Shown: positions 1 through 42,427 of the stretch, piece after piece
How the letters are laid out: each line of letters begins with the position of its first letter
How positions within the stretch are numbered: the first letter of the stretch is position 1
Source: an uncultured virus (IMG/VR IMGVR_UViG_3300021400_001748)
Taxonomy: Duplodnaviria > Heunggongvirae > Uroviricota > Caudoviricetes
Reading direction: 5' to 3' (one strand)
IMG/VR virus record: IMGVR_UViG_3300021400_001748
DNA: 64,000 nt
Program-made: the position numbers and the translations under genes
Notes under the pieces: generated by a model
Told to the model about the DNA's origin: nothing
The model's database searches: none
Seen by the model: only the letters and a program-made list of their open reading frames with translations

Positions 1-183
1 GGGCTACAAAATTATAAAAAAAATTTGCCCCCCGCTTTCAAAAGTGAGTTATAAAAAAAAAACCGGGGTTTTTTAAAACTGAGGTGTGGTAATTCCCCCC
101 TTTTTTTTTTTTTTTTTTTTTTTTTTGCAAATATTACACCCCATATTATAGCAGATAAAAACTATTTTATGGGAGGTATTATT

Positions 184-468
184 ATGTATAACTTAAATTA
201 TGTATATGTAGTAGTTTCTATGGACAAAAAGGATTATATGATTGAGCAGCTTATCAGCGATCTTGAAGGCTGGGCTAGTCATCTGTATAGAGTCGATCGG
301 AAGAATCGGGTCCTGTATAGAGGCCTTATTCCAGTGAAAGAACTTGAGAGTCTGTTTACATTAGAAGCCATGAGTCCTTATGGAGCTGGCTACGAGATTA
401 CAGTTGACGGAGTACCTGCCAGGGATTATGGTTGTTATCCTTGGAAAGTAGTTAGAGGGATTGCATAA
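184..468 (+). CDS. hypothetical protein
   Basis: GGAGG RBS, ATG at 184, upstream repeated motif. Confidence 0.7.
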   Translation: MYNLNYVYVVVSMDKKDYMIEQLISDLEGWASHLYRVDRKNRVLYRGLIPVKELESLFTLEAMSPYGAGYEITVDGVPARDYGCYPWKVVRGIA

Positions 469-541
469 ATTGCAGTCCCTTTAATTTTTACATATCCTAT
501 AATGTAACAATAACTCACAACTCAATAAAGGAGGAACGATT

Positions 542-844
542 ATGGAAGAACTTATTAATGCTTTGAATGAGCTATTCGACAATGCGCTGAAAGTAGGAAT
601 TGTTGAATACCCGGAAGATCCTGGATACTTATATTTCAAAGAGGATAATGATTTGTACAAGAAGGTGGACAAGTTGTGTGATCAGCTATTGATTGACAGC
701 TCCGAACACTGCAACTGGACAAACATTAGCACTCTTCGAAATTCTGGATTCAGAGTATTTCCTGGAGATCAAGATGGTTTTGGCTGGCTAGTTGGATGCA
801 TTCAGAGAAATGGTGACCGTAAGCTTACGTTTACTTATGGATGA
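542..844 (+). CDS. hypothetical protein
   Basis: AAAGGAGG RBS; motif upstream, hairpin downstream. Confidence 0.75.
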   Translation: MEELINALNELFDNALKVGIVEYPEDPGYLYFKEDNDLYKKVDKLCDQLLIDSSEHCNWTNISTLRNSGFRVFPGDQDGFGWLVGCIQRNGDRKLTFTYG

Positions 845-929
845 TGTTTGTTACGACTTAAGAGCAACTATTACAGCTGCTCTTTCTTTTTGCAAATATT
901 ACAGCTCCTAGTATAGGAGGTGATACTTT

Positions 930-1139
930 ATGATGAACGAATTAGATTTTCAAAAAATGCGAGGCGACGAATATTTCAAGGCACTACAAAAAGAGTGGGC
1001 TAAGAGTTATGAGTATCAATGTAAAATAACAGAACTGTTAGACAAACTATATGAGAAAGATAATGAAATATATCGTCTCAAGTGCGAAATTTCTGATTTA
1101 AAGTTTGAGTTAAAATGCACTAAAAATGGAGCAGATTAA
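930..1139 (+). CDS. small coiled-coil hypothetical protein
   Basis: AGGAGGTG RBS; heptad pattern; stop codon lies in the terminator loop. Confidence 0.7.
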   Translation: MMNELDFQKMRGDEYFKALQKEWAKSYEYQCKITELLDKLYEKDNEIYRLKCEISDLKFELKCTKNGAD

Positions 1140-1159
1140 ACATCTGCTTCTTTTTTTTT
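1131..1159 (+). terminator. intrinsic terminator GCAGAT-TAAAC-ATCTGC + T tract (also at 2142 and 8256)
   Basis: Perfect hairpin followed by T-rich sequence; three identical cores. Confidence 0.75.
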
Positions 1160-1202
1160 CTGTTCGAACTAGTGAGAACTGGTGAACGTAGTGAACGCAC
1201 TA

Positions 1203-1231
1203 TTGACAACACGACGAAAACCCTATATAAT
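1203..1231 (+). promoter_or_regulatory. consensus sigma70/sigmaA promoter
   Basis: TTGACA(1203)-17 nt-TATAAT(1226). Confidence 0.8.
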
Positions 1232-1309
1232 GCCTTAGTGAGGTACCAATCGCAAAACCTAAGGGCATACATAGGGCATTCTATCATATATGGATCCTAA
1301 GCAAATCCT

Positions 1310-1338
1310 ATTGTAGAATATTTTCTAAGCCATGTCAA
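1310..1338 (-). promoter_or_regulatory. convergent sigmaA-type promoter on the minus strand
   Basis: Minus strand TTGACA-17 nt-TACAAT; spacer overlaps inverted repeat TAGAA-TATT-TTCTA. Confidence 0.6.
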
Positions 1339-1402
1339 GGGGTTTTGTGACGAAATAGTAAAATTTAAGTCACTCATTTTCATGAAAGGAGATCAAAATG
1401 AC

Positions 1403-1600
1403 ATGGTTTACGAACAGATTTTAAAGTATTGTGAAGAGGAGAACATTTCGCTCTCAGAATTCGAGAAGAGATGCGAGATTGGAAACGGAACTGTAGGCAA
1501 ATGGAAGGACGGTAAGACGAGTCCTACGATTAAAACTTTGAATAAAATAGCTATTCATACAGATGTCACGATCGGATACTGGCTGGGAGGGATGGCATGA
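1403..1600 (+). CDS. XRE/Cro-family HTH transcriptional regulator
   Basis: ISLSEFEKRCEIGNGTVGKWKDGKTSPTIKTLNKIA is a typical HTH_XRE; AAAGGAG RBS. Confidence 0.85.
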   Translation: MVYEQILKYCEEENISLSEFEKRCEIGNGTVGKWKDGKTSPTIKTLNKIAIHTDVTIGYWLGGMA

Positions 1601-1938
1601 TGTATGAGCTTAGTAGAAACAGGTTCAAAGAGCTGAAACACTTTTGTTTACAGTATCCTGAAATGAAAGAAAGGACGCTTGAATTATATTCTAAGGGATA
1701 CGAAGAGACTTACGATCCAACAGGAAAGATAGCTTCAGAACTTGCTGACATAGAAAAAGCGATGAATCTGATCGAGACGACAGCATTCAATATCGGAAAA
1801 TTCCCGGGGGAGAAAATTCTGAAAATCGTTACAGAAGGAAGGGTGATAGGAGAAGTGTGCCCTGGTGATAATGATATTTGTGAGTGGTATCTTCGGAAGT
1901 TTTACTGGATGCTGGATAAAGCTAAGGGTGTGATTTGA
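1597..1938 (+). CDS. phage hypothetical protein
   Basis: ATGA overlap with the upstream gene; ELKHFCLQYPEM motif. Confidence 0.7.
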   Translation: MMYELSRNRFKELKHFCLQYPEMKERTLELYSKGYEETYDPTGKIASELADIEKAMNLIETTAFNIGKFPGEKILKIVTEGRVIGEVCPGDNDICEWYLRKFYWMLDKAKGVI

Positions 1939-1979
1939 AGCAAATATTACAACTCTTAAAATAGAAAGGAGTGATGAAT

Positions 1980-2150
1980 ATGAAAGAAATAATACTGTAT
2001 TCCGAAGGTCATATCTTTGCCAGCGATGCAGAAAGGATAAAGCAAATATGTGACGAACTTAATCAAAAGCTGGCGGCTGAAGGATATCTTTCGGCATACG
2101 ATGTCCTTGATGAAATCTATGAAGCACTCGGCATTAAAGAAGCAGATTAA
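1980..2150 (+). CDS. 56-aa protein resembling the DUF6353 C-terminal motif (not in ORF track)
   Basis: Own motif, AAAGGAG RBS and terminator; MKEIILYSEGHIFASDAERIKQICDELNQKLAAEGYLSAYDV... Confidence 0.65.
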   Translation: MKEIILYSEGHIFASDAERIKQICDELNQKLAAEGYLSAYDVLDEIYEALGIKEAD

Positions 2151-2208
2151 ACATCTGCTTCTTATTTTGCAATTATTACATCTCCTAGTATAGAAAGGAG
2201 TGATAGTT

Positions 2209-2472
2209 ATGAAAGTATACGCAGTTATACGCGAAGGGCAGTATGACGAACCAACGGAATTAATCTCTATTCACAAGACATTTGATGGAGCCCGTGAATC
2301 TATGAAAAGAGAATCATTCAAACTTATCGACGATGAGATAGCCGTTCTCATTAAAGAGAAGGAAGATAGTATTACTCTAGGATACGAGTGCCCAACAATG
2401 AACGAGTATGAAGAACCGAAGATTGATCCGTGGCTCGGATACTACATCGAAACAAAAGAATTACTTGAATAA
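2209..2472 (+). CDS. hypothetical protein
   Basis: Cassette with RBS; MKVYAVI start. Confidence 0.7.
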   Translation: MKVYAVIREGQYDEPTELISIHKTFDGARESMKRESFKLIDDEIAVLIKEKEDSITLGYECPTMNEYEEPKIDPWLGYYIETKELLE

Positions 2473-2481
2473 CTTATCAAC

Positions 2482-2765
2482 TTAAGAGCATCTACTACAG
2501 GTGCTCTTAATTTTGCAATTTTTACATCTTCTATAATGAATCATTAATATTCATTTAAAGGAGGAAAAATCTATGAATACTTGCAAACGAATCATGGACG
2601 TAGTTAATAAGTCTTTAGTTGTTTTGTACGGCGGAGGAATACTTATGAGCTGCGTTTTAGTAGGACAATGGAGTATAAATTGGGCAAAAGAGGAATTTAT
2701 GAAGGAATAATATTTGATAAGAGCATCTACTACAGGTGCTCTTAATTTTTACATCTCCTATAATG
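2482..2765 (+). repeat. direct repeat of terminator plus promoter (TAAGAGCATCTACTACAGGTGCTCTTAATTTT...ACATCT) flanking a small ORF
   Basis: Near-identical copies at about 2483 and 2718. Confidence 0.85.
2573..2710 (+). CDS. 45-aa membrane peptide (not in ORF track)
   Basis: AAAGGAGG RBS; hydrophobic core; complete cassette. Confidence 0.6.
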   Translation: MNTCKRIMDVVNKSLVVLYGGGILMSCVLVGQWSINWAKEEFMKE

Positions 2766-2798
2766 TAATAAACTTTATATTTTCGAAAGGAGATACTT

Positions 2799-3107
2799 AT
2801 GGTAGAAAAAGAGGTACTGCAGAATTTTATAGGAATTAAATTCTGGGATTTAAAAAGGCAACTCGGGGTCGATAACGATTATTCCGACTATGAGCAGAAT
2901 AATGTTAGACAGACATATCTTGACGAATGCATCGAATTGTTACCGTATTTAATGACAAGAAGCGGAACTGTAGATGAGGCAGAAAGACTGACAAAATATT
3001 ATTTTGTACTCAAGGTGTCAGAGCATCGTCCAGATCTCGATATCACCAAGGCTAGAATTGATTTGGGAATTACAGAGCTCAAGGAAAAGTATTGTAAGGA
3101 AATTTAG
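2799..3107 (+). CDS. hypothetical protein
   Basis: Cassette with RBS and hairpin. Confidence 0.7.
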   Translation: MVEKEVLQNFIGIKFWDLKRQLGVDNDYSDYEQNNVRQTYLDECIELLPYLMTRSGTVDEAERLTKYYFVLKVSEHRPDLDITKARIDLGITELKEKYCKEI

Positions 3108-3184
3108 TAGTGAAAAAGATGAGGAGTCCTAACAAGGGCTCTTCTTTTTGTTGAGTGAAACGAAGCACTAAGGAGGTTATATTT

Positions 3185-3454
3185 ATGGGACCTGATTTAT
3201 TAGAAGTATACAATCCCTGGACTGGCGAGATTGTTAAGACAACGCATTCTAATCTTATGAACAGCATCTGGACGTTAAACAAGCTATCACGTCCTGTTAA
3301 GCTGTGGTCACTTTTATATGCATTCGGACTTGAGCAGACTGTTACGAGTAAAGGTATTGATATTTTGAGTGATTCGTCTGAAAATCTCGGCGTTAGAACA
3401 GAAAGACTAAACGACAAAATAATGCTTGAATTATACATTCGAACTGATCTGTAA
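3185..3454 (+). CDS. hypothetical protein
   Basis: AAGGAGG RBS before ATG at 3185. Confidence 0.65.
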   Translation: MGPDLLEVYNPWTGEIVKTTHSNLMNSIWTLNKLSRPVKLWSLLYAFGLEQTVTSKGIDILSDSSENLGVRTERLNDKIMLELYIRTDL

Positions 3455-3511
3455 TTTTTACAATTCCTATAATGAACCAATCACTTTATATTTTAAAAAG
3501 GAGGATTTATT

Positions 3512-3736
3512 ATGGGTCATGAGACAAAAGTTAAGTTGGGATACCCAGAGTTCCAGCAATTAGTGAATGCTAATGATTATCTTGAGGAAATAAGAGAACT
3601 GCTAAGAGCACAGACACAAATGAACTTGCTCTCAGATCTCCTGTTCCATGACATGATCAGCGAAGAGGTTTATAAGTCGGAACTCGAAAATATTGCAACG
3701 ACGGAAATGCATATGAGCATAAAGTTCCTGAAGTGA
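3512..3736 (+). CDS. hypothetical protein
   Basis: Cassette with RBS. Confidence 0.7.
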   Translation: MGHETKVKLGYPEFQQLVNANDYLEEIRELLRAQTQMNLLSDLLFHDMISEEVYKSELENIATTEMHMSIKFLK

Positions 3737-3807
3737 CAACTATAACCCTGTGCAGGTGATGCATGGGGTTAATTTTTACATCTCCTGTAATGAAAGGAGT
3801 GATACGT

Positions 3808-3993
3808 ATGTTCAATACTAAAAAGAACAGAATTAAGGAGCTCGAAAATAGACTTATTACTGCATTATTGTATAATGAATTACTGGAGAAGCAGGTAGAG
3901 AACTATCAAGGACGTCTTGATGCTGAAATTAAAGAATCAGAGAAGTGGAAGAAACGTTGTCACGAATTATGCAAAGAAGCTCAGGAGAAATAA
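3808..3993 (+). CDS. small coiled-coil protein
   Basis: AAAGGAG RBS; cassette. Confidence 0.65.
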   Translation: MFNTKKNRIKELENRLITALLYNELLEKQVENYQGRLDAEIKESEKWKKRCHELCKEAQEK

Positions 3994-4092
3994 CCTGGGC
4001 TTTTATATTTTCTGTTCGAATTCATGATGATCTGTAAAAATTACACTTCTTATAATGTAAATAATAACTAACTTTTCAAAAGGAGGACTATT

Positions 4093-4275
4093 ATGAAACA
4101 CATAACAAGACAGTATTTTATGGCTGTTGCATCGCTGACCGCAGCACATCTTCAGAATGCAAAAGAATCTGATGACGGAAAGACGGTGGTCGACGAAAGC
4201 TATTTAAGAGCAGTTTTGAATTGTTTTGGACAAGATCCTGATGTTAGGAATTATTACGCAGAGGAGGAAAAGTAA
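4093..4275 (+). CDS. hypothetical protein
   Basis: Cassette with RBS. Confidence 0.65.
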   Translation: MKHITRQYFMAVASLTAAHLQNAKESDDGKTVVDESYLRAVLNCFGQDPDVRNYYAEEEK

Positions 4276-4379
4276 CAAGTTATGAAACTAAAAATAGGGG
4301 AGGCGCTGCTTCTCCTATTGTTTTTCTAATTGCTTCATGATATTCTATTCGTACACTTTACTAAAAGGAGGAGAGACCT

Positions 4380-4595
4380 ATGAAAGTAACGTTTGATGAG
4401 TATCTTGAAGCTTGTGACAGAAGTGTTGAAAATCCAGATATTCCTATGCCGATTCCATGTGCTAGCTGTGAGGATGAAATGATGGAATACGATGCAGATA
4501 GCGAAAGTTATATTTGCCAGTCTTGTGGAAGAGAGGTACTGCTTGAAGATAAGGATGAATACTTACAGGACATTCTTTCTGGAAAGTATGAATAA
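4380..4595 (+). CDS. acidic zinc-ribbon protein
   Basis: CASC...CQSC; strong RBS; lacks the repeated motif. Confidence 0.7.
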   Translation: MKVTFDEYLEACDRSVENPDIPMPIPCASCEDEMMEYDADSESYICQSCGREVLLEDKDEYLQDILSGKYE

Positions 4596-4702
4596 TAGAA
4601 TTTCAAAAGGCTCTATCAGAAATGGTAGGGTCTTTTTTATTCGTAAAAATTACATCAGCTATAATGTAGCATAAAGTTATTTTTAGAAAGGAGAAACTTA
4701 CT

Positions 4703-4876
4703 ATGAAGATGATGAATGACAAGGAAAGACAGGTATGTTTAGGCATTATTTCTAGAGGAATTGAGAATGCGGACTTGGCGAAAGAAAACCAGGATCGTAT
4801 TATCAGAGCTCAGAGTAGGCTGATTATTGACTTGTTGACCGAAGTCACGGCTTTAAAGAAGGAACTTGGTAAATAA
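4703..4876 (+). CDS. 57-aa hypothetical protein (not in ORF track)
   Basis: Motif, AAAGGAG RBS and hairpin. Confidence 0.6.
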   Translation: MKMMNDKERQVCLGIISRGIENADLAKENQDRIIRAQSRLIIDLLTEVTALKKELGK

Positions 4877-4998
4877 TAATTAACATTACAAAAAAGGAGG
4901 GACTTAGCACGAGACTGTTGCAAGTCCTTTCTTTTTCGCAATTTTAACATTTCCTTTAATGATATACATTAACTATTTATTATAAAGGAGGAAATGAC

Positions 4999-5172
4999 AT
5001 GAAAAGCTGGATCTTAAAAGTGATTGGATTCATTCATGGAGGCATATTGATGACTAGCATCTGTATGAATGTAATACTTGGTCTCATTATTGCACTTATG
5101 TATGAAGACAAGAAGAAAGAAAAAGAGAATCCATGGCACAGTTATAGCGGATATTATAATGGAAAGAAATGA
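4999..5172 (+). CDS. 57-aa membrane peptide (not in ORF track)
   Basis: Motif and RBS; one hydrophobic segment. Confidence 0.6.
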   Translation: MKSWILKVIGFIHGGILMTSICMNVILGLIIALMYEDKKKEKENPWHSYSGYYNGKK

Positions 5173-5233
5173 TATTTTCAAAAGCTTCAGGCAGAAATGT
5201 CTGGGGCTTTTAGTTTTCACTAAAGGAGGACAT

Positions 5234-5716
5234 ATGGACAAACTTTATATTCATTACGGGTCTAATCATTTAATCAAAGAGAAAGTTACTGAAATGAAAC
5301 ATGAAGCAGGAATCAATATGTGCATAAACAAGCCAGATTTCGGACTTTGGGGCTCTCCAGTTGACTGTGAATTCGGATGGAAGGAGTGGTGCGAATCCGA
5401 AGACTTTCATACGGATACTCTTGATCAATATTTTGTATTCAAGGTGAAAGACGGAGCCAAGATTTTTACAGTGAGAAAGAATAATGACGTATCGGATTAT
5501 CTTCACTCTCTTGGTTATCTAAATATGTTCAAGTGCATAGACTTTGATAAAATCATGAAAGAATACGACGGCATGGAATTAATTCATGGCGATAACTATA
5601 TGGATCTTCATTATGGGTATTTCTACAGTTGGGATGTTGATTCAATAGTCGTCTGGAATCCGGATGTTATCGAAGTAGTTAGGAAGCATACGCAAAAACT
5701 ACACATACTAAGATAG
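5234..5716 (+). CDS. phage hypothetical protein
   Basis: AAAGGAGG RBS before ATG at 5234; YIHYG, KPxxGLWGSP and WDVDS motifs. Confidence 0.75.
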   Translation: MDKLYIHYGSNHLIKEKVTEMKHEAGINMCINKPDFGLWGSPVDCEFGWKEWCESEDFHTDTLDQYFVFKVKDGAKIFTVRKNNDVSDYLHSLGYLNMFKCIDFDKIMKEYDGMELIHGDNYMDLHYGYFYSWDVDSIVVWNPDVIEVVRKHTQKLHILR

Positions 5717-5856
5717 AAAGGAGGTTGACCGGGAGGCCGGCAGAGGCACATCTATGGCCATATCTATGTCATCTCTATTTCACATCTAAGTAACGCTTTG
5801 AGTTAGATTGCAAGTAATTCAATGCGTTATATCTTTTTGAGAAAGGAGGCGAAAAA

Positions 5857-6012
5857 GTGGATACACTGGGCATTGTTTGTATTGTTTTTACGATTATCAT
5901 TCAAACTTTTTGTCTGGGAGAAGATTTGGGTAATTTTAAAGCGGCCGTTAAAGTTACCTGTATCTCTTTCTGGACCATGTTACTCGCTGTGTTACTATTT
6001 AAACTCATATGA
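5857..6012 (+). CDS. 51-aa peptide with two hydrophobic segments (not in ORF track)
   Basis: AAAGGAGG RBS before GTG. Confidence 0.55.
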   Translation: MDTLGIVCIVFTIIIQTFCLGEDLGNFKAAVKVTCISFWTMLLAVLLFKLI

Positions 6013-6023
6013 AAGGAACTAAA

Positions 6024-6326
6024 ATGAAGGTATTTTTAAGTTATCCAATGAATGGAAAGTCATTATCTGAACAGCTTGGAATCAGGCATGCTATGAAAGA
6101 AGCACTATGGAATCAAGGCTATGCAGGGTGCGAGGTTACTCATAATGCCTACTGTCCGATTGTAGAAGGAGCAGGTAGACTCTACTACTTAGGACAGGCT
6201 ATCTCAAAAATGGACGGATGCGATGCGGTTGCATTTCATCCTGAATGGATCATGGCGAATGGATGCAGAGTTGAAAGATTTGTTGCTGAGATATACGGAC
6301 TTACTATCATTGATCTTGACATGTAA
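6024..6326 (+). CDS. DUF4406 / nucleoside 2-deoxyribosyltransferase-like protein
   Basis: MKVFLSYPMNG ... CDAVAFHPEW..ANGCRVE pattern. Confidence 0.75.
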   Translation: MKVFLSYPMNGKSLSEQLGIRHAMKEALWNQGYAGCEVTHNAYCPIVEGAGRLYYLGQAISKMDGCDAVAFHPEWIMANGCRVERFVAEIYGLTIIDLDM

Positions 6327-6342
6327 AGGAGTGATATTTATC

Positions 6343-6627
6343 ATGTGGATTTTAATTTTGACATTTATAATCGGCTTACTGATGGGCATTGTGATAGGCA
6401 TTCCTGTAACACTATATCTCTATAAAGCAGGAACTCTTGTAATTGATCAATCTGATCTTATCACAGACAAATACTCATTCGAAATAGATAAGGATCTTGC
6501 TAAGCTGCCTCGTGAAGATTATATTTCAATGAAGATCAAAGTAATAAACGAGCGTCCAGAAGTCGTTACTGAAGAGCATGTTAAGAAGTATTTAGACGTG
6601 CCTGAAGATGACCTTGATCCGCAATAA
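6343..6627 (+). CDS. protein with an N-terminal TM helix
   Basis: RBS; hydrophobic N-terminus. Confidence 0.7.
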   Translation: MWILILTFIIGLLMGIVIGIPVTLYLYKAGTLVIDQSDLITDKYSFEIDKDLAKLPREDYISMKIKVINERPEVVTEEHVKKYLDVPEDDLDPQ

Positions 6628-6682
6628 AAACAATGGCTTTAATGAAACTATAAAATTGGTCTTAGAAAGGAGATACGGAAAC

Positions 6683-7081
6683 ATGACAACAAATTATGCG
6701 GAAACTCTTGATCAGATTCTTGAAGTAAATGCAGAATCTATATTGCAGATGGATCTGACAGATGAGAAAGCAGAAAAGGCTGTTAAGAATTTGGAAACTC
6801 TTAGCGGCATTCGTGTTCAGCTGTACCAGGCACAGCAGGAAGCATATGAAGCTGAAGTTAAGGCTCAGCAGGAAGATGCTAAGGCTGTACTTGATCGGAA
6901 GAATACGATTGCAACATGGGCAACAAATGGATTCACAGCTGTATTGATGCTTTTCTCTGCGGTAACTCCGTTTGTGATCATGAACGCTGAGAAAGAGGGC
7001 AGATTCTGGTCGAGAGCTGCCATGAATGCTGTCGAAAAGGGTCCGAAGTTTGGATTCGTAAAGGCTATTTTTAGGAAGTAG
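6683..7081 (+). CDS. coiled-coil protein with a TM segment
   Basis: Cassette with RBS. Confidence 0.7.
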   Translation: MTTNYAETLDQILEVNAESILQMDLTDEKAEKAVKNLETLSGIRVQLYQAQQEAYEAEVKAQQEDAKAVLDRKNTIATWATNGFTAVLMLFSAVTPFVIMNAEKEGRFWSRAAMNAVEKGPKFGFVKAIFRK

Positions 7082-7185
7082 TTTCAATCAGTTTAAGGCC
7101 CTGTGTGATATTTTACATGGGGTCTTAATTTTTACAAGTCGTATAGTGATACTAATTAAAATGTTTCTGAGAAAGGAGAAATGTT

Positions 7186-7533
7186 ATGAAGGAAGAAACT
7201 ATTAACAAACTTGACAGGATCAAAAGAAAGATCGATGACCATCCACTTTTGGTAGGTCTTATTATAGGCATATCAACCGTGTCGATCATTGGCATTCCGT
7301 ATTTGATTGGTTACAGGCACGGTAAAGTAGATATGCTTAATATTGTGGACAAAAGCACAGAGCCAATCATTCAGAGGGCTTTTGATATTGGCGGGGAAGT
7401 CACTTATAGGACGATCAAAGAAAAGGCACCGAAAGCTTTCGATATGATGCATAAAGAAGTTGGGACGTTTTTAACAGTTGAGTATCCTGGAGCAACAGTA
7501 GACTATTTCAAAGGAACTATCAGAGTAAAATAA
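7186..7533 (+). CDS. membrane-anchored hypothetical protein
   Basis: Cassette; weak resemblance to 18038..18415. Confidence 0.7.
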   Translation: MKEETINKLDRIKRKIDDHPLLVGLIIGISTVSIIGIPYLIGYRHGKVDMLNIVDKSTEPIIQRAFDIGGEVTYRTIKEKAPKAFDMMHKEVGTFLTVEYPGATVDYFKGTIRVK

Positions 7534-7539
7534 GTATCA

Positions 7540-8012
7540 TTAAGGGCTTGTTGCAAATGCTACAGGTCCTTATATTTTTTTCAAATTAGCAATTTTTACA
7601 GATTGTATAATGATACAAATTAAATGTTTTCAAAAGGAGGAAAACTATGGACTTTGATAACATGGGAGAAATTAAAGAGCTTTTAAAACTTGGAGATGAT
7701 TTCAGTGATGAAGAGATAACTAGTAATCTTAACAAGAATATTACGATTCAGGCCATTATTGATGATGGAGAGAATGAAGTTGTATTCCCATTGATCAAAT
7801 TGCCGGCCTGGACAGTAGTCGAAGCTTATAAAAATATTGCTAGATTTGAGAAAGGAGAGTGCACTGAAGCAGACGCAAAAGAAGAGTTCAAAAACCGCTT
7901 TAATGATCTCATTGATGTCGGAATAGTGGAAGTCTGCATTTAATTGCATTGATAAGGGCTTGTGGCAAATGCTACAGGTCCTTATATTTTTTCAAATTAG
8001 CAATTTTTGCAT
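7540..8012 (+). repeat. about 60-bp direct repeat (terminator plus promoter) flanking ORF 7647..7943; third partial copy at about 8739
   Basis: TAAGGGCTTGTtGCAAATGCTACAGGTCCTTATATTTTTTCAAATTAGCAATTTTT at about 7541 and 7953. Confidence 0.85.
7647..7943 (+). CDS. acidic hypothetical protein
   Basis: Cassette with RBS. Confidence 0.7.
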   Translation: MDFDNMGEIKELLKLGDDFSDEEITSNLNKNITIQAIIDDGENEVVFPLIKLPAWTVVEAYKNIARFEKGECTEADAKEEFKNRFNDLIDVGIVEVCI

Positions 8013-28505: not shown

Positions 28506-28508
28506 TGC

Positions 28509-34112: not shown

Positions 34113-34114
34113 TT

Positions 34115-34939: not shown

Positions 34940-34941
34940 AT

Positions 34942-35244
34942 ATGGCAGGAATGAGGATATTTAGGACTGCAGACGACATGATGTATGACTTAGGATATCA
35001 TAAAGTTGAGGACAGCATTTCATGCAAAGATCTGTCCGGAGTTACCTATGAAAGGTTCATGGGAGAAGGCATCGGAACTAAGGTTATAGCTCTTGAACGG
35101 CAGGATGATGGACATTATATTCTTGGGTGTTTCAATAAATCTGGAAGTGTTCTTGGAGTAGGTGGTCACACTATGAGTTGGCTTACAGATAAGGAAATGA
35201 AGGCTGCTTATAGGAAGATGAAGGAGCTTCGGTCCAGAGAATGA
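34942..35244 (+). CDS. hypothetical protein
   Basis: ORF within the operon. Confidence 0.6.
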   Translation: MAGMRIFRTADDMMYDLGYHKVEDSISCKDLSGVTYERFMGEGIGTKVIALERQDDGHYILGCFNKSGSVLGVGGHTMSWLTDKEMKAAYRKMKELRSRE

Positions 35245-35254
35245 GGGAAGTGAT

Positions 35255-35455
35255 ATGGGCGAATCTTGGGAAAATGAAGTTGTTCGTAAGAAGGATCTTG
35301 TAGATTGGATTCAGAAGGCGGCATCTGCATATCAACAGCTACAATATTTGTATAGGAACCGCATAGACTATGGAAAAGAAATGACAATTCTTTGTGCTGT
35401 TGCAGATTATGTGCGTTGTATGAAGCCGTATGATAGTGATAATGTAGACAAGTGA
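35255..35455 (+). CDS. hypothetical protein
   Basis: ORF within the operon. Confidence 0.55.
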   Translation: MGESWENEVVRKKDLVDWIQKAASAYQQLQYLYRNRIDYGKEMTILCAVADYVRCMKPYDSDNVDK

Positions 35456-35494
35456 TGTGGAGAACATTATATTTCACAGTTTGGGAGGAGGTGA

Positions 35495-36049
35495 TTGTTA
35501 TTGGAGAAATTCCGCGGGTGGCATATTTTTGAATATTATCAATGGCTTCTTGAGAAGATTGACGGTTACAAGGAGCCTTATTATAACTATAGTTTGTTGC
35601 TTCATGAGCTTCATTCAATGCCTTTTATCTACTCACTTGAGATGGATGAAAACAGGGCTTCAGATGGCATTAGACTTCGCTGGGCTTACATGGATGAAAA
35701 CAATATTCCAGACCTTTATTACAAAGAAGGATTCTCTTGTTCAGTGCTCGAAATGATGATTGGACTCGCGATTCGATGCGATGTTGAGATCATGGGAGAC
35801 GGGGATTCGTACGGTACAAATGCCGGAAAATGGTTCTGGATAATGATTGATAATCTGGATCTGATGAAGTGCGATGACGAGCATTTTTCGAGTGAATATG
35901 TGCATCAACAGATCAAGATTTGGCTGACTCGTACGTTCTCAAGGAATGGCGAAGGGAGTCCGTTTCCGCTTCACAAAAAGAGATGCAGAGACCAGAGAAA
36001 TGTCGACATTTGGTTTCAGATGTGCGGGTATTTGAGTGAGAATTTTTAG
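35495..36049 (+). CDS. phage hypothetical protein
   Basis: GGAGGAGG RBS; DENRASDGIRLR, CSVLEMMIGLAIR and DIWFQM motifs. Confidence 0.75.
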   Translation: MLLEKFRGWHIFEYYQWLLEKIDGYKEPYYNYSLLLHELHSMPFIYSLEMDENRASDGIRLRWAYMDENNIPDLYYKEGFSCSVLEMMIGLAIRCDVEIMGDGDSYGTNAGKWFWIMIDNLDLMKCDDEHFSSEYVHQQIKIWLTRTFSRNGEGSPFPLHKKRCRDQRNVDIWFQMCGYLSENF

Positions 36050-36083
36050 TGATTTTGGAGGTGAATTGGAGGCATTATATTTT

Positions 36084-36278
36084 ATGGAAAATGGCGGTGA
36101 AAAGCGTGGTCGAGGAAGGCCGAAAAAGGACGGAATTACGTTAAAAAATGATGCACATTTTCGCATTTCTGACGAGGATGATGAGCGCTTAAATTTGATA
36201 GCAAAAGAGCTAAAAACTACGCGTTCAAATGCCATCAGAATACTTATAAAAGAGGCCAAAAATATACTAAATATTTAG
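36084..36278 (+). CDS. AT-hook plus ribbon-helix-helix DNA-binding protein
   Basis: KRGRGRPKK; FRISDEDDERLNLIAKELKTTRSNAIR. Confidence 0.7.
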   Translation: MENGGEKRGRGRPKKDGITLKNDAHFRISDEDDERLNLIAKELKTTRSNAIRILIKEAKNILNI

Positions 36279-36279
36279 A

Positions 36280-36580
36280 ACAAAATGGGCATTACATTTT
36301 CATTACATTCTGCTAAAAAATGCCTTACATTTTTGCCATTTTCGATTTAGTGTATCCCAAAATAAAAAAATAAAATGGGATACACTAATTCAAAAGTGTA
36401 ATGAAATGTAAGGAAATGTAATGCCCGAAACCCGCATAAATACTGGGTTTTTTCAAATCCTTACAAATTACATAATTTTTTTATATTGCATCTATAGAAA
36501 TTAAAAAATGAAAATATATAGAACAAACTGAAAAATTTTTGTAATTTTGTAATGCGAGTCCAAAATGGGCTAAAAATTGA
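36280..36580. other. candidate replication origin
   Basis: AT-rich non-coding region with TTACA/TGTAA repeats and nested inverted repeats, directly upstream of the replicase gene. Confidence 0.55.
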
Positions 36581-36601
36581 TGAAAGGAGGTGCGAAAATG
36601 A

Positions 36602-39600
36602 ATGCGACATTTTGTGCGAATTGATTGCGAAATTAGGGAGGCAAAACGCAACGGAAAAAAGAGGTTATATTTGATCGTAAAACCGGCCTATAACATCACT
36701 GCAAAAGACATCATGAAGAAGGGCGGAAAGTTCTATGCAATCCTCGATAGAAATACCGGAATGTGGTCAACAGATGAAGGCGATGTAGCCACCATAATCG
36801 ACAACGATATAAAAGAGTATGTGAAGACACAATGCCGTAAGGATGAAGCCGGGAATTATATTTGGCATGATAGAGCAGATGACACTTATTTGCCAGTTCA
36901 TATGCTATTAATTGATGATAGCACTTCTGGCCAGCTTCTTGAGTTCAATAGATGGTTTAATAACCTCCCTCCGAATCATAACTATGTACAGCTTGATTCA
37001 GATATCACATTTAAAGATGACGCGGTTACTCCTGAAATGTACAGAAGCAAGCGACTGTCATATAGTATAAGTCCTGGAGACATTGAAGCCTATGACAGAC
37101 TTATGAGCGTATTATATTCTGAGCAGGATAGAGAAAAAATTGAATGGTCTATTGGATCAGTGTTCACAGGGATGTCTAAGAAGATTGAGAAGATTCTTGT
37201 TCTTTACGGAAAACCTGGAAGCGGAAAGTCGACAGTACTTGATCTTATCAAAGAATTGTTCAAAGGATACTGGGCTCCGTTTGTTGCAAGTGAGCTTGTC
37301 AGTAAAACGAATCAGTTTGCGACTGCAGTGTTTAAGGACAATCCTTTAATAGCAATTCAGGACGATGGCAGTCTTGCCAAGATCGAGTCTCCAGTCATTA
37401 ATGAAATTATATCCCATAAGGATGTAATGATTAATGAGAAGTCTAAGCAGCAGTATGCAATCCGTTCAAACGCATTCTTATTTCTCGCCACCAATGAGGT
37501 TGTAGACATACGCGATAGAAAACTTGGCATCACAAGAAGGCTTCTTGACGTTTATCCATCTGGCAAAAAAATACCGGAAGATGAATTTGACTCAATCGTT
37601 GAAAGACTGAGATTTGAACTTGGAGCAATAGCTGATCATTGCATAACGGTATTTAAAACTCTTGGCAAGAATTACTATAGTCGATACGAGCCAATGAAGA
37701 TGATCGAAAAAACTAATCCTCTTCAGAATTTCTTGTTTGATAACTTAGACAGTCTCATGGGCAAGGAGTTCTACTTTCGTGATCAATTATATTCTGATTA
37801 CAAAAATTACTTTGAAGAAAGTGGTTTTGGGTATCCGCCAAAAAGAATGGACTTCACTGAGCAAGTAACAGAATATTTTGAAACATATGAAAAGACGAAG
37901 TGGATCCCAGGAAGAGGAACTGTTAGAAATGTGTTTTCAGGTCTAAAGGTAAATAAGATTTGCGGACTTGGAGAAAGTGACACTGTAAAAAAGTCGTCGA
38001 CGTGGCTTAACTTTGATCAGACGGAATCAATTCTTGATGAATTATATTCTGATCAGCCTGCACAGTATGCAAAAGATGACGGAACTCCAAAAAATAAATG
38101 GAGTAAAGTCAAGACGAAACTTAAAGACATGGATAAGTCCAAGCTTTATTGGGTGAAGTTTCCTGAGAATGTGATAAAGATGGATTTTGACTTGACTGAC
38201 AAAGACGGGAATAAGTCGCTGGAGGAGAATGTTAAGGCGGCTTCTAAGTTTCCTCCAACTTACGGTGAGTTGTCAAAGTCTGGTCAAGGCATTCACCTTT
38301 ATTATATTTACGATGGAGACCCTAGCGAGCTTGAAGATATGTTCGCTGAACATATTGAAATCAAGAAATCATTTGGCGACAGATCACATAGACGACTTAT
38401 CACGAAATGTAATAATCTACAATTAGCTCATTTAAGCACGGGACTTCCGTTGAAAGGAGAGGGGGTCAAAGTGATAGACGAAAATGTAGTAGCAACAGAA
38501 AAGGGATTGCGGACAACTATTCTGAAATGCACTCACAAAGAAGTTCATGGCGATACGAGATCAAATATTGATTTCATTTACAAAGTTCTTGAAGATGCTT
38601 ACAACAGCGGACTCAAGTATGATGTGTCTGATATGAGACAGGAAGTACTTATATTCGCTATGAATTCAACTCACCAGTCTGAATACTGTGTCAACAAAGT
38701 CGGAGAAATGAAGTTCTCATCTGAAGAAGCTGGACGATATGATGACAGCTATGATCCAGATGGACCAATTATATTCTTCGACTATGAAGTTTTTCCAAAC
38801 CTTGTATTACTTTGCTATAAAGTACAAGGCGAAGGAAATCCAGTAACTAAAATATTTAATCCTACTCCGAAACAGATTCAAGATTTTCTTGGAATGGAGC
38901 AGAAGTACAAGAACAAAGTCATAGGATTCAATAACAAAGAATATGATAATCACATAACTTATGCTCTTCTTATGGGCAAGACACCTTATGAGGTCTTTAT
39001 TATATCTCAGGGAATCATTAATAAAGAGAAAGGTGCTAAGTTTAGAGAAGCTTACAATTTATCGTATTCAGATATCAGAGACTTTTGTCCAAATAAGCAG
39101 TCACTAAAGAAATGGGAGATTCAGCTTGGCATTCATCATCAGGAACTTGGATTCAGATGGGATGAGCCGGTCGATGAAAAAGATTGGCCGACAGTAGCAT
39201 CGTATTGCGAAAATGATGTCATTGCAACTGAAGCAGTTTTTGAAGCTAATCAGGCAGCTTGGAAAGGAAGACAGATCTTAGTAGATCTTGCGAATATCCT
39301 TATTGGGCCTGGATCAACGGTTAATGACAGTACGAATCAGCTTACAACAAAACTGATAGTCGGGAACGAAAAGAATCCTCAGCGGTATTACAATTATCCA
39401 GATTTAGCAAAAGAGTTCCCAGGATATGAATTTAACAAGTTCGGCATTGATAAGTCTCGTTATATTTCAAAAGATGTTATTATCAGCGGCAAATCTATTT
39501 ACAAAGGCTACGATCCTGGAGAAGGTGGCTTTGTCTGGGCAAATCATGGAATGTACGGAAGAGCCATAAGCTTTGATAGTGCTTCTCATCATCCTAGCTC

Positions 39601-40606
39601 AATAATTGCTGAGAATGGATTCGGCAAGTTCACAGAAAACTTTAAACGGCTTCTTGATTTGAGACTTCATGTGAAACATAAAGAGTATGACATTATCAGA
39701 AGCATGTACAATGGAGCGTTGGCAAAATATCTGCAAACAGATGAAGATGCCGATGCTCTTTCTTTTGCACTTAAGATAGCAATCAATAGTGTATACGGCC
39801 TTACAGCAGCTACATTTCCTCATCCTCTTCGTGATCCGAGGAATATCGACAATTGGGTTGCTAAGCGCGGAGCACTATTCATGATTGATTTGATGCTTAA
39901 TGTAAGAGCTATGGGCTACACCGTGCTACATTGTAAGACGGATTCGATAAAGGTCCTTAATCCTGACGAGAAGGTAGCCAATTATATTTACGAATATGGC
40001 AAGAAGTTTGGATACACCTTTGAGATTGAGCATATCTTTGATCGTATTTGTCTTGTTAATGATGCTGTTTACGTCTGTAAGTATACAGAAGATCCTGAAA
40101 ATGGAAAGCATGCTGGCAAATGGGATGCTACTGGAAAACAGTTTCAGGTTCCGTATGTTTTCAAGACTCTATTCTCGCATGAGCCAATAGAGTTTGAAGA
40201 CATGTGCGAAACGAAGAACGTCGAGACGGCATTATATTTGGATTACAACGAAAATCTGCCTGATGGAGAGCATGATTATCAGTTCGTTGGAAAGACAGGT
40301 CAGTTTTGTCCTATAAAGCCTGGCTGTGGTGGAGCTCTTCTTATGCGAGAGAAAGATGGAAAGTACGCCGCTGCAGAAAGTACGAAAGGATATAGATGGC
40401 TTGAGGCAGAAGTTGTAAAGAAGTTTGAAAAAGAGGACACTATTGACACTTCATACTATGAAGTCATGGTAAATAAAGCATTGGACAAAATTGGCGAATT
40501 CGGAAGCTATGAAAAGTTTGTTTCTGATGAGCCTATTGATCCTCCATTACCAGATTTCATGAATATCCCGGAAACAGATGAAGAAGAATTGCCATGGGCA
40601 CTTTAA
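36602..40606 (+). CDS. fused SF3 (D5-like) helicase, primase-like domain, 3'-5' exonuclease and family-B-like DNA polymerase
   Basis: Walker A GKPGSGKST; DFD and SKSGQGIHLYY; Exo motifs FDYE, GFNNKEYD, YCENDV; Pol motifs DSASHHPS, KIAINSVYG, KTDS. Confidence 0.88.
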   Translation: MRHFVRIDCEIREAKRNGKKRLYLIVKPAYNITAKDIMKKGGKFYAILDRNTGMWSTDEGDVATIIDNDIKEYVKTQCRKDEAGNYIWHDRADDTYLPVHMLLIDDSTSGQLLEFNRWFNNLPPNHNYVQLDSDITFKDDAVTPEMYRSKRLSYSISPGDIEAYDRLMSVLYSEQDREKIEWSIGSVFTGMSKKIEKILVLYGKPGSGKSTVLDLIKELFKGYWAPFVASELVSKTNQFATAVFKDNPLIAIQDDGSLAKIESPVINEIISHKDVMINEKSKQQYAIRSNAFLFLATNEVVDIRDRKLGITRRLLDVYPSGKKIPEDEFDSIVERLRFELGAIADHCITVFKTLGKNYYSRYEPMKMIEKTNPLQNFLFDNLDSLMGKEFYFRDQLYSDYKNYFEESGFGYPPKRMDFTEQVTEYFETYEKTKWIPGRGTVRNVFSGLKVNKICGLGESDTVKKSSTWLNFDQTESILDELYSDQPAQYAKDDGTPKNKWSKVKTKLKDMDKSKLYWVKFPENVIKMDFDLTDKDGNKSLEENVKAASKFPPTYGELSKSGQGIHLYYIYDGDPSELEDMFAEHIEIKKSFGDRSHRRLITKCNNLQLAHLSTGLPLKGEGVKVIDENVVATEKGLRTTILKCTHKEVHGDTRSNIDFIYKVLEDAYNSGLKYDVSDMRQEVLIFAMNSTHQSEYCVNKVGEMKFSSEEAGRYDDSYDPDGPIIFFDYEVFPNLVLLCYKVQGEGNPVTKIFNPTPKQIQDFLGMEQKYKNKVIGFNNKEYDNHITYALLMGKTPYEVFIISQGIINKEKGAKFREAYNLSYSDIRDFCPNKQSLKKWEIQLGIHHQELGFRWDEPVDEKDWPTVASYCENDVIATEAVFEANQAAWKGRQILVDLANILIGPGSTVNDSTNQLTTKLIVGNEKNPQRYYNYPDLAKEFPGYEFNKFGIDKSRYISKDVIISGKSIYKGYDPGEGGFVWANHGMYGRAISFDSASHHPSSIIAENGFGKFTENFKRLLDLRLHVKHKEYDIIRSMYNGALAKYLQTDEDADALSFALKIAINSVYGLTAATFPHPLRDPRNIDNWVAKRGALFMIDLMLNVRAMGYTVLHCKTDSIKVLNPDEKVANYIYEYGKKFGYTFEIEHIFDRICLVNDAVYVCKYTEDPENGKHAGKWDATGKQFQVPYVFKTLFSHEPIEFEDMCETKNVETALYLDYNENLPDGEHDYQFVGKTGQFCPIKPGCGGALLMREKDGKYAAAESTKGYRWLEAEVVKKFEKEDTIDTSYYEVMVNKALDKIGEFGSYEKFVSDEPIDPPLPDFMNIPETDEEELPWAL

Positions 40607-40630
40607 CAAAGAGAAAGGAGAATTATATTT

Positions 40631-41134
40631 ATGGCAAGAGTATTTGACCTTGATTTTGAAAACGTACGAATTGTATCTAGAGATTTTGGCGGAGAGACAT
40701 TTGGACCTGATCAGAGGCAGTTTAAAGTTGTTATTGAGGATCCTGAATTCATCCAGAAGCTTATTAATGACGGAGTTAAGATCTGGTGCCCTGAGAAGCA
40801 GAGCCCTGATGATCCACCTGTTGGATACATGACCGTTAAAGTTAGCTATAGATTTGGAGCACCTAAGATTGCCCTTCTTACTCCTGAAGGTAATGCTCAC
40901 CTTTTTGATGAGAGATCTGTGCATGAGCTTGACAGAGCATGGATCAAGGACGTTGAACTTCACGTTCATGGCAGCACCTGGGAACGTCCGAATGGACAGA
41001 AAGGCATCTCTGTCTATCTTGACACACTTGTTGGCCATCTGATCAGTAAAGAAGAGCGTGATCAGCTCATGCAGGAATCTCAGTATACAAATGATCCTGT
41101 GAGAAACAAGTATAAAGGAATTTTTGGAGAATAA
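40631..41134 (+). CDS. putative single-stranded DNA-binding protein
   Basis: Located between polymerase and helicase; beta-rich pattern (GISVYLDTL). Confidence 0.6.
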   Translation: MARVFDLDFENVRIVSRDFGGETFGPDQRQFKVVIEDPEFIQKLINDGVKIWCPEKQSPDDPPVGYMTVKVSYRFGAPKIALLTPEGNAHLFDERSVHELDRAWIKDVELHVHGSTWERPNGQKGISVYLDTLVGHLISKEERDQLMQESQYTNDPVRNKYKGIFGE

Positions 41135-41137
41135 ACT

Positions 41138-42355
41138 ATGGAATTATATTCTCACCAGATTAAAGCTATAGATAAGCTTAAAAACGGTTCGATACTTTGT
41201 GGTGATGTTGGCACCGGAAAAAGTAGAACAGCACTTGCTTACTATTACACAAAAGTATGCGGTGGGAGTATGGAAGTTAACGATGAAGGTGCCTGGGGAG
41301 ATCCAACAGCTCCTCGGGACCTTTTTATTATCACCACTGCTAAGAAACGAGATGATTGTGAATGGCTTAAAGAATGCATTCCATTTGGCATTGGTTCCGA
41401 TCCAAATATCAGCATTTCAGGAATTAAGGTCACTGTAGACTCTTGGAACAACATTCGAAAATATGTAAATGTCTACGGAGCGTTTTTCATTTTTGATGAA
41501 CAGAGAGTTTGCGGATATGGAGCTTGGGTAAAGGCATTCTTTAAGATCACTAAGAAAAATCAATGGATTCTGCTTTCTGCAACTCCTGGCGATACATGGT
41601 CTGATTATATTCCTGTGTTTATAGCAAACGGATTCTACAGAAACAAAACAGACTTCAATTCACAGCATTGCATTTTCAGCCCGTATACGAATTATCCAAA
41701 AATTGAGAAATATGTGAATATAGGCACTTTGATGAGACACCGTCAGGAAATCTTAGTTCGGATGAAATATAGAAAGCAGGCTGAACAGCATCATCTCTAC
41801 ATTCAAACACTTTATGATAAGCAATTATATTTGCAAGTTTTCAAATATCGATGGGATCCATATGACAATGCCCCAATAGACGAAACTGGCAAATTGTGTT
41901 ATCTACTTAGAAAGGTGGTGAATTCAGATATCAGCAGAATAGAGGCTGTAAGAGACATCTTGAAAGATCATAAAAAAGTTATAGTGTTTTATAACTTCAC
42001 TTATGAGCTTGAAATGTTACGAGATCTTTTTACAGCTCTTAAGATTTCGTTTACAGAGTGGAATGGACAAAAGCATGAGACTATTTCAGATGGCGACACT
42101 TGGGGCTACTTTGTTCAGTACTCTGCTGGCTGTGAAGGTTGGAATTGTATCACTACTGACACAATTATATTCTATTCTCAAAACTATTCATACAGAATGA
42201 CTGTTCAGGCTTCTGGCAGAATAGACAGAATGAATACGCCATTTACAGATTTGTACTATTACCATTTGAAATCTTCATCGCCAATAGATTCTGCAATAGC
42301 TCGTGCTTTGCATAACAAAAAGAACTTTAACGAGAAAGGCTTTTTAGGAGGGTAA
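41138..42355 (+). CDS. SF2 (SNF2/DEAD-like) helicase
   Basis: GDVGTGKS, FDEQ, LSATPG, EGWN and QASGRIDR motifs. Confidence 0.9.
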   Translation: MELYSHQIKAIDKLKNGSILCGDVGTGKSRTALAYYYTKVCGGSMEVNDEGAWGDPTAPRDLFIITTAKKRDDCEWLKECIPFGIGSDPNISISGIKVTVDSWNNIRKYVNVYGAFFIFDEQRVCGYGAWVKAFFKITKKNQWILLSATPGDTWSDYIPVFIANGFYRNKTDFNSQHCIFSPYTNYPKIEKYVNIGTLMRHRQEILVRMKYRKQAEQHHLYIQTLYDKQLYLQVFKYRWDPYDNAPIDETGKLCYLLRKVVNSDISRIEAVRDILKDHKKVIVFYNFTYELEMLRDLFTALKISFTEWNGQKHETISDGDTWGYFVQYSAGCEGWNCITTDTIIFYSQNYSYRMTVQASGRIDRMNTPFTDLYYYHLKSSSPIDSAIARALHNKKNFNEKGFLGG

Positions 42356-42401
42356 GCCATAATATTATATTTAAAAGCAGTCTTTGCAGGTGCTATAAAT
42401 T

Positions 42402-42427
42402 CGCAAAAATTACAAGGCGTATAATAG
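42402..42427 (+). promoter_or_regulatory. copy of the repeated promoter motif upstream of the nuclease-RNAP operon
   Basis: CGCAAAAATTACAAGGCGTATAATAG. Confidence 0.7.

Follow-up and report, generated by a model that had tools for sequence, protein, structure and literature searches.

What reads the short sequence that recurs ahead of the early genes of an uncultured gut phage? The window analyzed here is the whole 64,000-nt stretch of IMG/VR record IMGVR_UViG_3300021400_001748, in which a 25-nt element of the form CGCAA-W4-TACA-N5-TATAAT-G/A occurs 31 times, in every case on the + strand and at a gene boundary. The repeated element is a real and highly non-random promoter class, and the RNA polymerase (RNAP) encoded by the phage itself, a predicted single-chain two-barrel enzyme of 954 amino acids, is probably its reader. 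An initial annotation of this DNA had proposed two readings, recognition by a phage RNAP or binding of an activator next to a host -10 box; the first of these is favored here by the presence of an RNAP with helix-turn-helix (HTH) modules, the conservation of the element, its co-occurrence with the RNAP gene and constraints on the transcription start. We infer the identity of the reader, the pairing of its HTH modules with the sequence blocks of the element, and the exact position of +1.

Repeated element at gene boundaries

We searched the window with the pattern of the initial annotation, allowing up to three mismatches and taking the chance level from 100 shuffles. This search yielded 25 matches, all on the + strand, against a shuffle mean of 0.15 and a maximum of 1. 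Iterated scans with a position weight matrix (PWM) added the copies at 891, 2168, 3768, 8292 and 16582, and then the one at 5691. At a threshold of at least 14 bits, the PWM gave exactly 31 matches in the window, again all on the + strand, compared with 0–2 matches in each of 20 shuffled windows. Twenty-six copies lie within positions 126–11821, and the others start at 16582, 18420, 31544, 32302 and 42402. The earlier estimate of about 32 copies, about 27 of them up to 11821, agrees closely with the 31 and 26 counted here; the five outlying copies, the uniform orientation and the mostly intergenic location were all recovered by the scans.

The internal spacing of the element is sharply defined. 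On the + strand, TACA-N{k}-TAWWRT has 17 matches at k=5 and 0–6 at every other k from 2 to 20, in agreement with the gap of about 5 nt between TTTACA and TATAAT reported initially; at k=5 there is no match on the - strand of the window. The upstream part, CGCR-N5-WACA-N5, was likewise found only with that spacer length. Variation of the -10-like part had also been described, and the boxes TAGTATAG, TAAGATAG and TTTAATG are indeed present among the copies. Since CGCA and CGCG forms are both found within single contigs, a comparison of the two for covariation between HTH modules and promoters was dropped.

A complete relative of the window phage, the IMG/VR contig G026 (87,960 bp, rated 100% complete), encodes an identical polymerase and shows about 90–99% identity to the window across the shared parts. 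It contains 35 PWM matches of at least 14 bits, all on the + strand and all between 42,065 and 83,796, with no motif copy detected by the PWM scan in its 42-kb structural and lysis module.

Repeats of this kind might instead serve mainly as recombination "boundary" or operator sites, kept for cassette shuffling or repressor binding. Such a role has been proposed, in the available text of bioRxiv 10.1101/2020.01.10.891226, for a 32-bp intergenic repeat that flanks rearranged genes in cluster AU Arthrobacter phages. Junctions between the window and contigs of a related phage are indeed located at motif copies or close to them (for example 891, 2165, 3475, 4666, 8290 and 8778), and the additional cassettes of the complete relative each bring their own copy. 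However, the strict polarity, the fixed distance to the Shine-Dalgarno sequence and start codon, and the fixed internal spacing fit a transcription signal, and it is short blocks rather than long homology that are conserved across phyla. We regard the boundary or operator explanation as very unlikely; cassette exchange at repeated promoters is likely to be a by-product and is compatible with recognition by the phage RNAP.

Conservation in related phages and co-occurrence with the polymerase gene

All six named relatives that were scanned with the window PWM possess the motif. The same blocks and spacings were found in 1706 (12 copies), FP_oengus (15), Mudcat (7), Secretariat (11) and DrGrey (12), and the relatives sharing this architecture are phages of Lactococcus, Faecalibacterium, Arthrobacter, Gordonia, Streptomyces and Rhodococcus, which span two host phyla. 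The motif takes the form CACAAGTTTTACA-N4-CTATAGTAG in 1706, CGCGTAAATTACA-N4-CTATAATG in Mudcat, CGCGAAAAAWNCA-N5-CTTTATGG in FP_oengus, and CGCA-N4-ATTACA-N4-CTATAATGAGACCCC in both Secretariat and DrGrey. The consensus of 88 copies pooled from six phages reads CGCAwnwwTTACAnnnnCTATAATrr. A motif copy stands ahead of the endonuclease-exonuclease-polymerase operon in each of the six relatives that were fully scanned. In three further phages, the half-pattern WACA-N5-TATART is strongly biased toward the forward orientation, with forward/reverse counts of 13/0 in ReqiPoco6, 13/0 in P162 and 9/1 in Qui.

The initial annotation had suggested the co-occurrence of motif and RNAP gene as a check. 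At least 133 stretches of IMG/VR match CGCA-N4-TTACA-N5-TATAATG exactly; 80 of them belong to 60 distinct contigs, of which 50 were tested for the RNAP. Many contigs with the exact motif carry several copies on the same strand. The RNAP is encoded by 35 of the 50 motif-selected contigs, including 17 out of 17 of those that are at least 90% complete. The control pattern, which is the motif read backward, gave 33 single matches, and the RNAP was found in none of the 32 searchable contigs and none of the five near-complete ones. The presence of the motif therefore predicts the RNAP gene in IMG/VR contigs. Enterococcus and Listeria phages were considered as additional controls lacking the RNAP and set aside, as they have only a distant DNA polymerase part in common with the motif-bearing phages.

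RNA polymerase and its operon

The RNAP gene (43392–46256, + strand) is preceded by genes for an endonuclease (42498–42788) and a Cas4-like exonuclease (42760–43389), the first and second genes of the RNAP operon, both also on the + strand. Its 954-aa product matches phrog_4291 ("RNA-dependent RNA polymerase", RdRP) from end to end with E=0. The motif GADFDGD, a metal-binding loop of the DxDGD type, occupies residues 556–562, and the segment S555-G-A-D-F-D-G-D562 is invariant in an alignment of 45 homologs. The Pfam RdRP profile PF05183 gives a sub-threshold match (16.3 bits, cut-off 23.8) exactly over the GADFDGD loop; the same profile is also weakly positive on the control genome of B. subtilis. 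In the complete relative, the 954-aa RNAP is the only protein with a DFDGD-type motif, D[FYWLIVM]D[GAS]D.

Three HTH modules were recognized in the RNAP, at residues ~62–87, ~112–132 and ~930–950, so that both ends of the protein are covered. The middle module has a nearly invariant recognition helix, ESSxR, and the C-terminal one matches Pfam sigma-70 region 4. A profile built from the 45-member alignment hit only HTH proteins among PDB sequences, and Pfam searches with the 45 family members returned only HTH families. A search of the ESM Atlas with the RNAP recovered its own family and one cluster named RdRP at 0.88, which we take as a lead only; some clusters carry the automatic and unconfirmed names "structural" or "tail" protein there, and the annotations of 1706 and P162 do not call the RNAP structural.

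The family is widespread. By tblastn, the RNAP was found at 42–46% identity in 250 phage records, which include phages of Arthrobacter, Gordonia, Streptomyces, Lactococcus, Curtobacterium, Microbacterium, Rhodococcus and Faecalibacterium, and its metagenomic family comprises 6617 clusters at E<=1e-10 among 7999 candidates scored. As far as the available text of bioRxiv 10.1101/842583 goes, a protein of the supercluster formed by 1706-like phages and actinophages was predicted there to be an RdRP/YonO-like polymerase, with a DxDGD loop, an HHpred probability of 95.7% for RdRP and HTHs at both ends, and this HTH-bearing RNAP was listed among the few genes common to the whole supercluster.

Directly after the RNAP gene lies an 86-aa open reading frame (ORF) assigned to phrog_4303 (46261–46521, + strand). 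It occupies the same place in all seven phages compared and contains an invariant L-T-DNP-NP-W-D-G pattern; its product is a possible cofactor of the RNAP.

Position relative to genes and transcription start

A Shine-Dalgarno sequence and a start codon follow 10–43 nt downstream of 24 of the 31 copies, usually at 30–40 nt, or of 25 copies if a 22-codon ORF after copy 10311 is counted. Terminator-like hairpins are enriched among these genes: positions 1–13000 contain 22 of them compared with 5.5±2.7 expected, and 21 of the 22 are on the + strand. Many end just upstream of a motif copy or overlap it, and where the two overlap, the T-tract of the terminator doubles as the A/T stretch of the motif.

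The tightest constraints on the start site come from copies with almost no leader. At five of them the Shine-Dalgarno sequence begins 0–2 nt past the motif: the TAGTATA copy at 891–915, which has GGAGG from the next base and an ATG at 930; the TAAAATA copy at 1939–1963 and the TAGTATA copy at 2168–2192, both with GAAAGGAG directly 3' and with ATG codons at 1974 and 2209, respectively; the TGTAATG copy at 3768–3792, with AAAGGAG directly 3' and an ATG at 3808; and the copy at 5691–5715. In FP_oengus, a tRNA-like gene called by ARAGORN (2935–3006) starts at the base after the motif at 2910–2934, and the sequence shows its acceptor stem, GAAGGAG/CTCTTTC. On this reading of the sequence, transcription has to begin at most 2 nt beyond the motif in several copies. 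An RNA begun about 7 nt downstream of the A/T box, as with a sigma factor, would lack the ribosome site or the acceptor stem, which excludes such a start at these copies. Most 1706 copies read CTATAGTA-GAAAGAAGG-N10-ATG, and a G occupies position 25 or 26 in all 88 copies pooled from six phages. Given the ribosome sites and the tRNA-like gene 0–2 nt past the motif and this universal G, we therefore infer +1 at the 3' edge of the motif, which would place the A/T box at about -6 to -1, TTACA at about -15 and CGCR at about -24.

Alternative modes of recognition

The element does not have the architecture of a sigma-70 promoter. Positions 16–18 bp upstream of TATAAT carry at most 0.7 bit of information, with no conserved -35 box, and the TTTACA-like block is located 5 bp rather than 16–18 bp from TATAAT. 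We also considered TTTACA as the -35 box of a further downstream -10 box and rejected it, as there is no conserved box 16–18 nt downstream. The A at position 2 and the T at position 6 of the -10 box are present in most copies of the window, Mudcat, Secretariat and DrGrey; the A at position 2 is missing from the TTTAAT variants of the window (4937, 6620, 8505 and 9675) and from FP_oengus (consensus CTTTAT). Sigma-54 promoters have GG at -24 and GC at -12, two dinucleotides 10 bp apart, and the pooled consensus CGCAwnwwTTACAnnnnCTATAAT lacks them. A search for T7-type RNAP (PF00940) gave no match in the complete relative, with a control search that was positive in no genome, and a general Pfam scan found no such enzyme among the 31 large ORFs of the window.

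For contrast, a canonical TTGACA-17-TATAAT site (12/12) is located at 1203–1231 on the + strand, upstream of a Cro/CI-type HTH gene (1382–1600). It stands in a 240-nt gap and faces an 11/12 site on the - strand (1338–1310), and both sites are conserved in the complete relative. Since the total number of window matches to the canonical sigma site at 11/12 or better is at chance level, reading 1203–1231 as a promoter rests on this context, in which it would show the host-type promoter form of this genome. Together with the Cro/CI-type gene, the facing promoter-like pair looks like a lysis-lysogeny switch. This region (1150–1400) also contains three GTGAAC repeats upstream, and a 55-aa ORF on the - strand (1287–1120) lies on the side opposite the Cro/CI-type gene.

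Several observations weigh against recognition by the phage RNAP. The sequence TATAAT is identical to the -10 consensus of sigma-A, the A/T box matches this consensus in 17 of the 31 window copies, and 26 of the 31 window leaders are long enough for a sigma-type start. The terminator-like hairpins are of the intrinsic, host type. The tRNA-like gene of FP_oengus has an aberrant, 6-nt anticodon loop (ARAGORN "tRNA-???") and a T-run at its end. The half-pattern is scarce in the RNAP-bearing phages Camille (1), Pippin15 (1), BitterVaud1 (2) and Scap1 (2), and it is absent from the RNAP-bearing partial contig89. Co-occurrence ties the motif to a phage lineage; it fails to single out the RNAP as the reader because these phages share other core genes too. 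Finally, the RNAP operon stands behind its own motif copy, which creates a bootstrapping problem: no strong canonical host promoter was found upstream of this operon, and the complete relative encodes no second DFDGD-type protein, while the phage is temperate. With this arrangement, the first RNAP molecules would come from leaky host transcription, from an unrecognized host promoter or from the virion.

The match to the -10 consensus and the length of most leaders, which accommodate a start 7 nt downstream, could mean that the copies are unusual host sigma-A promoters, in which TATAAT is a true -10 box and CGCA/TTACA binds an activator from phage or host that stands in for contact with a -35 box, as in sigma appropriation by MotA/AsiA of T4. 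The upstream block would sit at about the position of a MotA box, and a temperate phage requires host transcription at the outset. However, the Shine-Dalgarno sequence or the tRNA-like gene begins 0–2 nt past the motif in at least six copies, a start 7 nt downstream would land in CCC in Secretariat and DrGrey, and the FP_oengus box is CTTTAT. The hosts of the motif-bearing phages range from 35 to 72% G+C, and the motif is near-identical from phages of low-GC Firmicutes to Streptomyces phages, unlike a host-adapted promoter. Neither a MotA domain nor sigma region 2 was found in the complete relative: the MotA activation domain PF09114 had no match at E<=1 (AsiA was not searched), and sigma region 2 was found nowhere in that genome by a search that was positive in 11 of 14 control genomes. 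We consider host sigma-A with an activator unlikely.

The same lack of sigma region 2 and the same start-site constraints bear on another possibility, namely a phage sigma-like factor that steers the host core enzyme to the motif. A 248-aa ORF (53696–54442) would be the candidate for this role; its C-terminus is matched by Pfam Sigma70_r4_2 with E=6.8e-6. This ORF has no homolog in 50,697 phage records, yet the motif is supercluster-wide, and it sits among late structural genes, between the terminase and the portal. Of the explanations weighed here, this one seems the least credible.

Proposed mechanism

Under the preferred reading, the phage RNAP would bind duplex DNA through its built-in HTH modules at CGCR (about -24) and (T/A)ACA (about -15), two blocks that are one helical turn apart at a fixed spacing. 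Melting would follow at the A/T box (about -6 to -1), which is TATAAT or one of its variants, and the RNA would start at the G that occupies position 25 or 26 of the motif. A typical early-gene cassette would thus consist of a terminator-like hairpin, the promoter, a leader of about 35 nt, a Shine-Dalgarno sequence and an ORF, and the sparser copies farther along the genome would drive the replication genes. The copy ahead of the RNAP operon leads us to propose a positive-feedback loop.

In a stronger version, which we offer tentatively and hold to be somewhat less probable than its opposite, the 954-aa enzyme would be a cellular RNAP in miniature that is self-sufficient and needs no sigma factor: its three HTH modules would read a compressed three-block promoter, and it would start at G without a cofactor from host or phage. 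With the same promoter ahead of its own operon, the enzyme would form an autocatalytic switch by which the temperate phage becomes committed to lytic growth. The enzyme and its promoter would form a host-independent expression module, a pair that has hardly changed during the passage of the lineage between Firmicutes and Actinobacteria.

How minimal two-barrel RNAPs find their promoters is an open question; according to the available text of PMC5467207, the promoter and cofactor of YonO were left undetermined. Because the 25-nt promoter defined here has a fixed spacing and a predictable +1, the question can be addressed directly with short DNA templates and a single protein. With 250 records of the phage collection encoding the enzyme, the element also offers a rule by which early transcription units can be annotated in several hundred sequenced phages. 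If the enzyme is self-sufficient, the enzyme-promoter pair could become an orthogonal expression system in Gram-positive hosts.

Individual copies of the element

The first copy of the early region is located at 126–150 (TGCAAATATTACACCCCATATTATA). Directly 5' of it, at the border with the integrase side, window positions 96–126 hold six C followed by a run of about 30 T. The second copy (480–504) has a leader of 37 nt to the ATG at 542. Several copies lie close to terminator-like hairpins: the copy at 2741–2765 overlaps the T-tract of the hairpin at 2718–2744, and the TTTAAT variant at 9675–9699 abuts the hairpin at 9655–9675, whereas those at 4642–4666 and 8776–8800 begin 6 nt past the hairpins at 4605–4636 and 8737–8770, the one at 9409–9433 begins 7 nt past 9378–9402, and the one at 7999–8023 begins 14 nt past 7952–7985.

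Variant boxes also include TTTAATG at 4937–4961, 6620–6644 and 8505–8529, and TATAGTG at 7124–7148. Relative to the pattern of the initial annotation, the copy at 2514–2538 has one mismatch and that at 10061–10085 is an exact match. The remaining copies of the dense early block are those at 3450–3474, 4033–4057, 7588–7612, 9132–9156, 10311–10335 (the one with the 22-codon ORF downstream) and 11797–11821, which is the last of the block. Beyond it, the TTAGATG variant at 16582–16606 stands ahead of a DUF6353 gene, the copy at 31544–31568 overlaps the 3' end of the ORF at 30931–31569, and two others are located at 18420–18444 and 32302–32326. The last copy (42402–42426), which is followed by GAAGAGAAGGG, precedes the endonuclease-exonuclease-RNAP operon.

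Two copies share the identical CGCAAAAACTACACATACTAAGATA variant. The one at 5691–5715 is followed by 141 nt without a long ORF; behind the one at 8292–8316, about 175 nt free of ORFs lead up to a T-run. No convincing ORF was recognized in the stretches behind them, 5716–5850 and 8317–8495; the latter ends in the T-run, is 99.5% identical to the complete relative compared with about 95% in its flanks, and has a fold z-score of -1.7. Both stretches are possible small RNAs.

Genomic context of the window phage

Searches of the ORFs against Pfam and PHROGs place the window in a siphophage of the 1706-like/actinophage supercluster. The structural genes identified include those for the terminase, portal, protease-capsid fusion, major tail protein and tape measure protein; the replication and other genes include those for a 1334-aa primase-polymerase, SSB, a helicase, the Cas4-like exonuclease and ThyX, among others. 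All large ORFs of the window are on the + strand, and their ribosome sites are strong (AAAGGAGG). The phage is temperate, judging from the integrase encoded by its complete relative. This integrase gene is on the - strand, immediately ahead of the early region, and the same arrangement is found in FP_oengus. Megablast searches with window positions 1–12000 and 30000–50000 found nothing similar in the phage collection.

The ends of the complete relative map to window positions 46566/46568, right behind the polymerase operon. The window is therefore a rotated view of the genome, with the polymerase operon at the right end; this operon is also at the right genome end in 1706 and in the actinophages. 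At the mapping point of the ends, window positions 46522–46570 contain an inverted repeat (GGGGGAGGGG/CCCCTCCCTCC), which is probably a cos or terminus region.

Other features of the window include a formate/nitrite-transporter-like gene (30931–31569), three DUF6353 paralogs (14137–17527 and 33018–34112), and genes for a radical-SAM Fer4_12 protein and a family-8 glycosyltransferase in addition to ThyX. An intergenic stretch ahead of the late genes (48890–49210) has tRNA-like arms (e.g., GGTTCAAATCCGG), a fold z-score of -3.25 and a strong terminator-like hairpin at 49171–49203; ARAGORN and Rfam called nothing on the window, this stretch included.

Comparison with known systems

T7 and SP6 promoters, judged by their consensus sequences, resemble the element in being one block of about 25 bp with an A/T-rich "TATA" box directly ahead of a G at +1, and some 1706 copies, which read ACTATAGTAGAAAG, resemble promoters of the T7/SP6 type; the T7/SP6 enzyme fold, however, is unrelated to that of two-barrel RNAPs. 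The likeness to sigma-70/sigma-A promoters lies in TTTACA and TATAAT, which resemble the -35 and -10 boxes, and in the C-terminal HTH of the phage RNAP with its match to sigma-70 region 4. The element differs from them in its spacer (5 instead of 16–18), in the additional CGCR block, and in a predicted start at most 2 nt beyond the A/T box, where a sigma-70/sigma-A promoter starts about 7 nt (roughly 5–9 nt) downstream of its -10 hexamer.

The HTH-flanked putative RNAP of the supercluster (bioRxiv 10.1101/842583, as described in its available text) belongs to the same protein family as the window RNAP. The word "promoter" does not occur in that paper, and the repeat is not linked to the polymerase there. 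The 32-bp repeat of cluster AU (bioRxiv 10.1101/2020.01.10.891226) is probably the same DNA element as the motif; in the available part of that paper it is read as a recombination boundary and is not linked to the polymerase. A literature search with motif strings and for promoters of YonO-like or double-psi RNAPs returned no text tying the motif to the enzyme. Within the literature searched, the prediction of the enzyme family and the observation of the repeat in one cluster were already known, and the link between the two and the definition of the promoter are new.

The nearest characterized systems are YonO and the polymerases of the Thermus phage P23-45, its virion RNAP gp96 and non-virion RNAP gp64. 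Like the window phage, P23-45 is a siphophage with single-chain RNAPs of the cellular DxDGD type; each of them is associated with a conserved motif of its own ahead of the starts of early genes, an RNAP gene is located at the genome end, and the motif tracks the RNAP in relatives (PMC10770324, available text). The two systems differ in that P23-45 has mapped starts and two enzymes, one of them fused to the tape measure protein, whereas the window phage has a single DFDGD protein and is known from sequence. A search of the available text of PMC10770324 found neither "HTH" nor "helix-turn-helix", with the motifs described just as AT-rich and GC-rich, and its supplements make no mention of phages of the 1706-like/actinophage supercluster.

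YonO of the Bacillus prophage SPbeta is similar by description, being a single-chain two-barrel RNAP of a temperate siphophage of Firmicutes. It serves one late operon with one mapped start, and its promoter and need for a cofactor were left open in the available text of PMC5467207, whereas the window phage possesses 31 copies of a defined element, mainly ahead of early genes, and an enzyme with three HTH modules.

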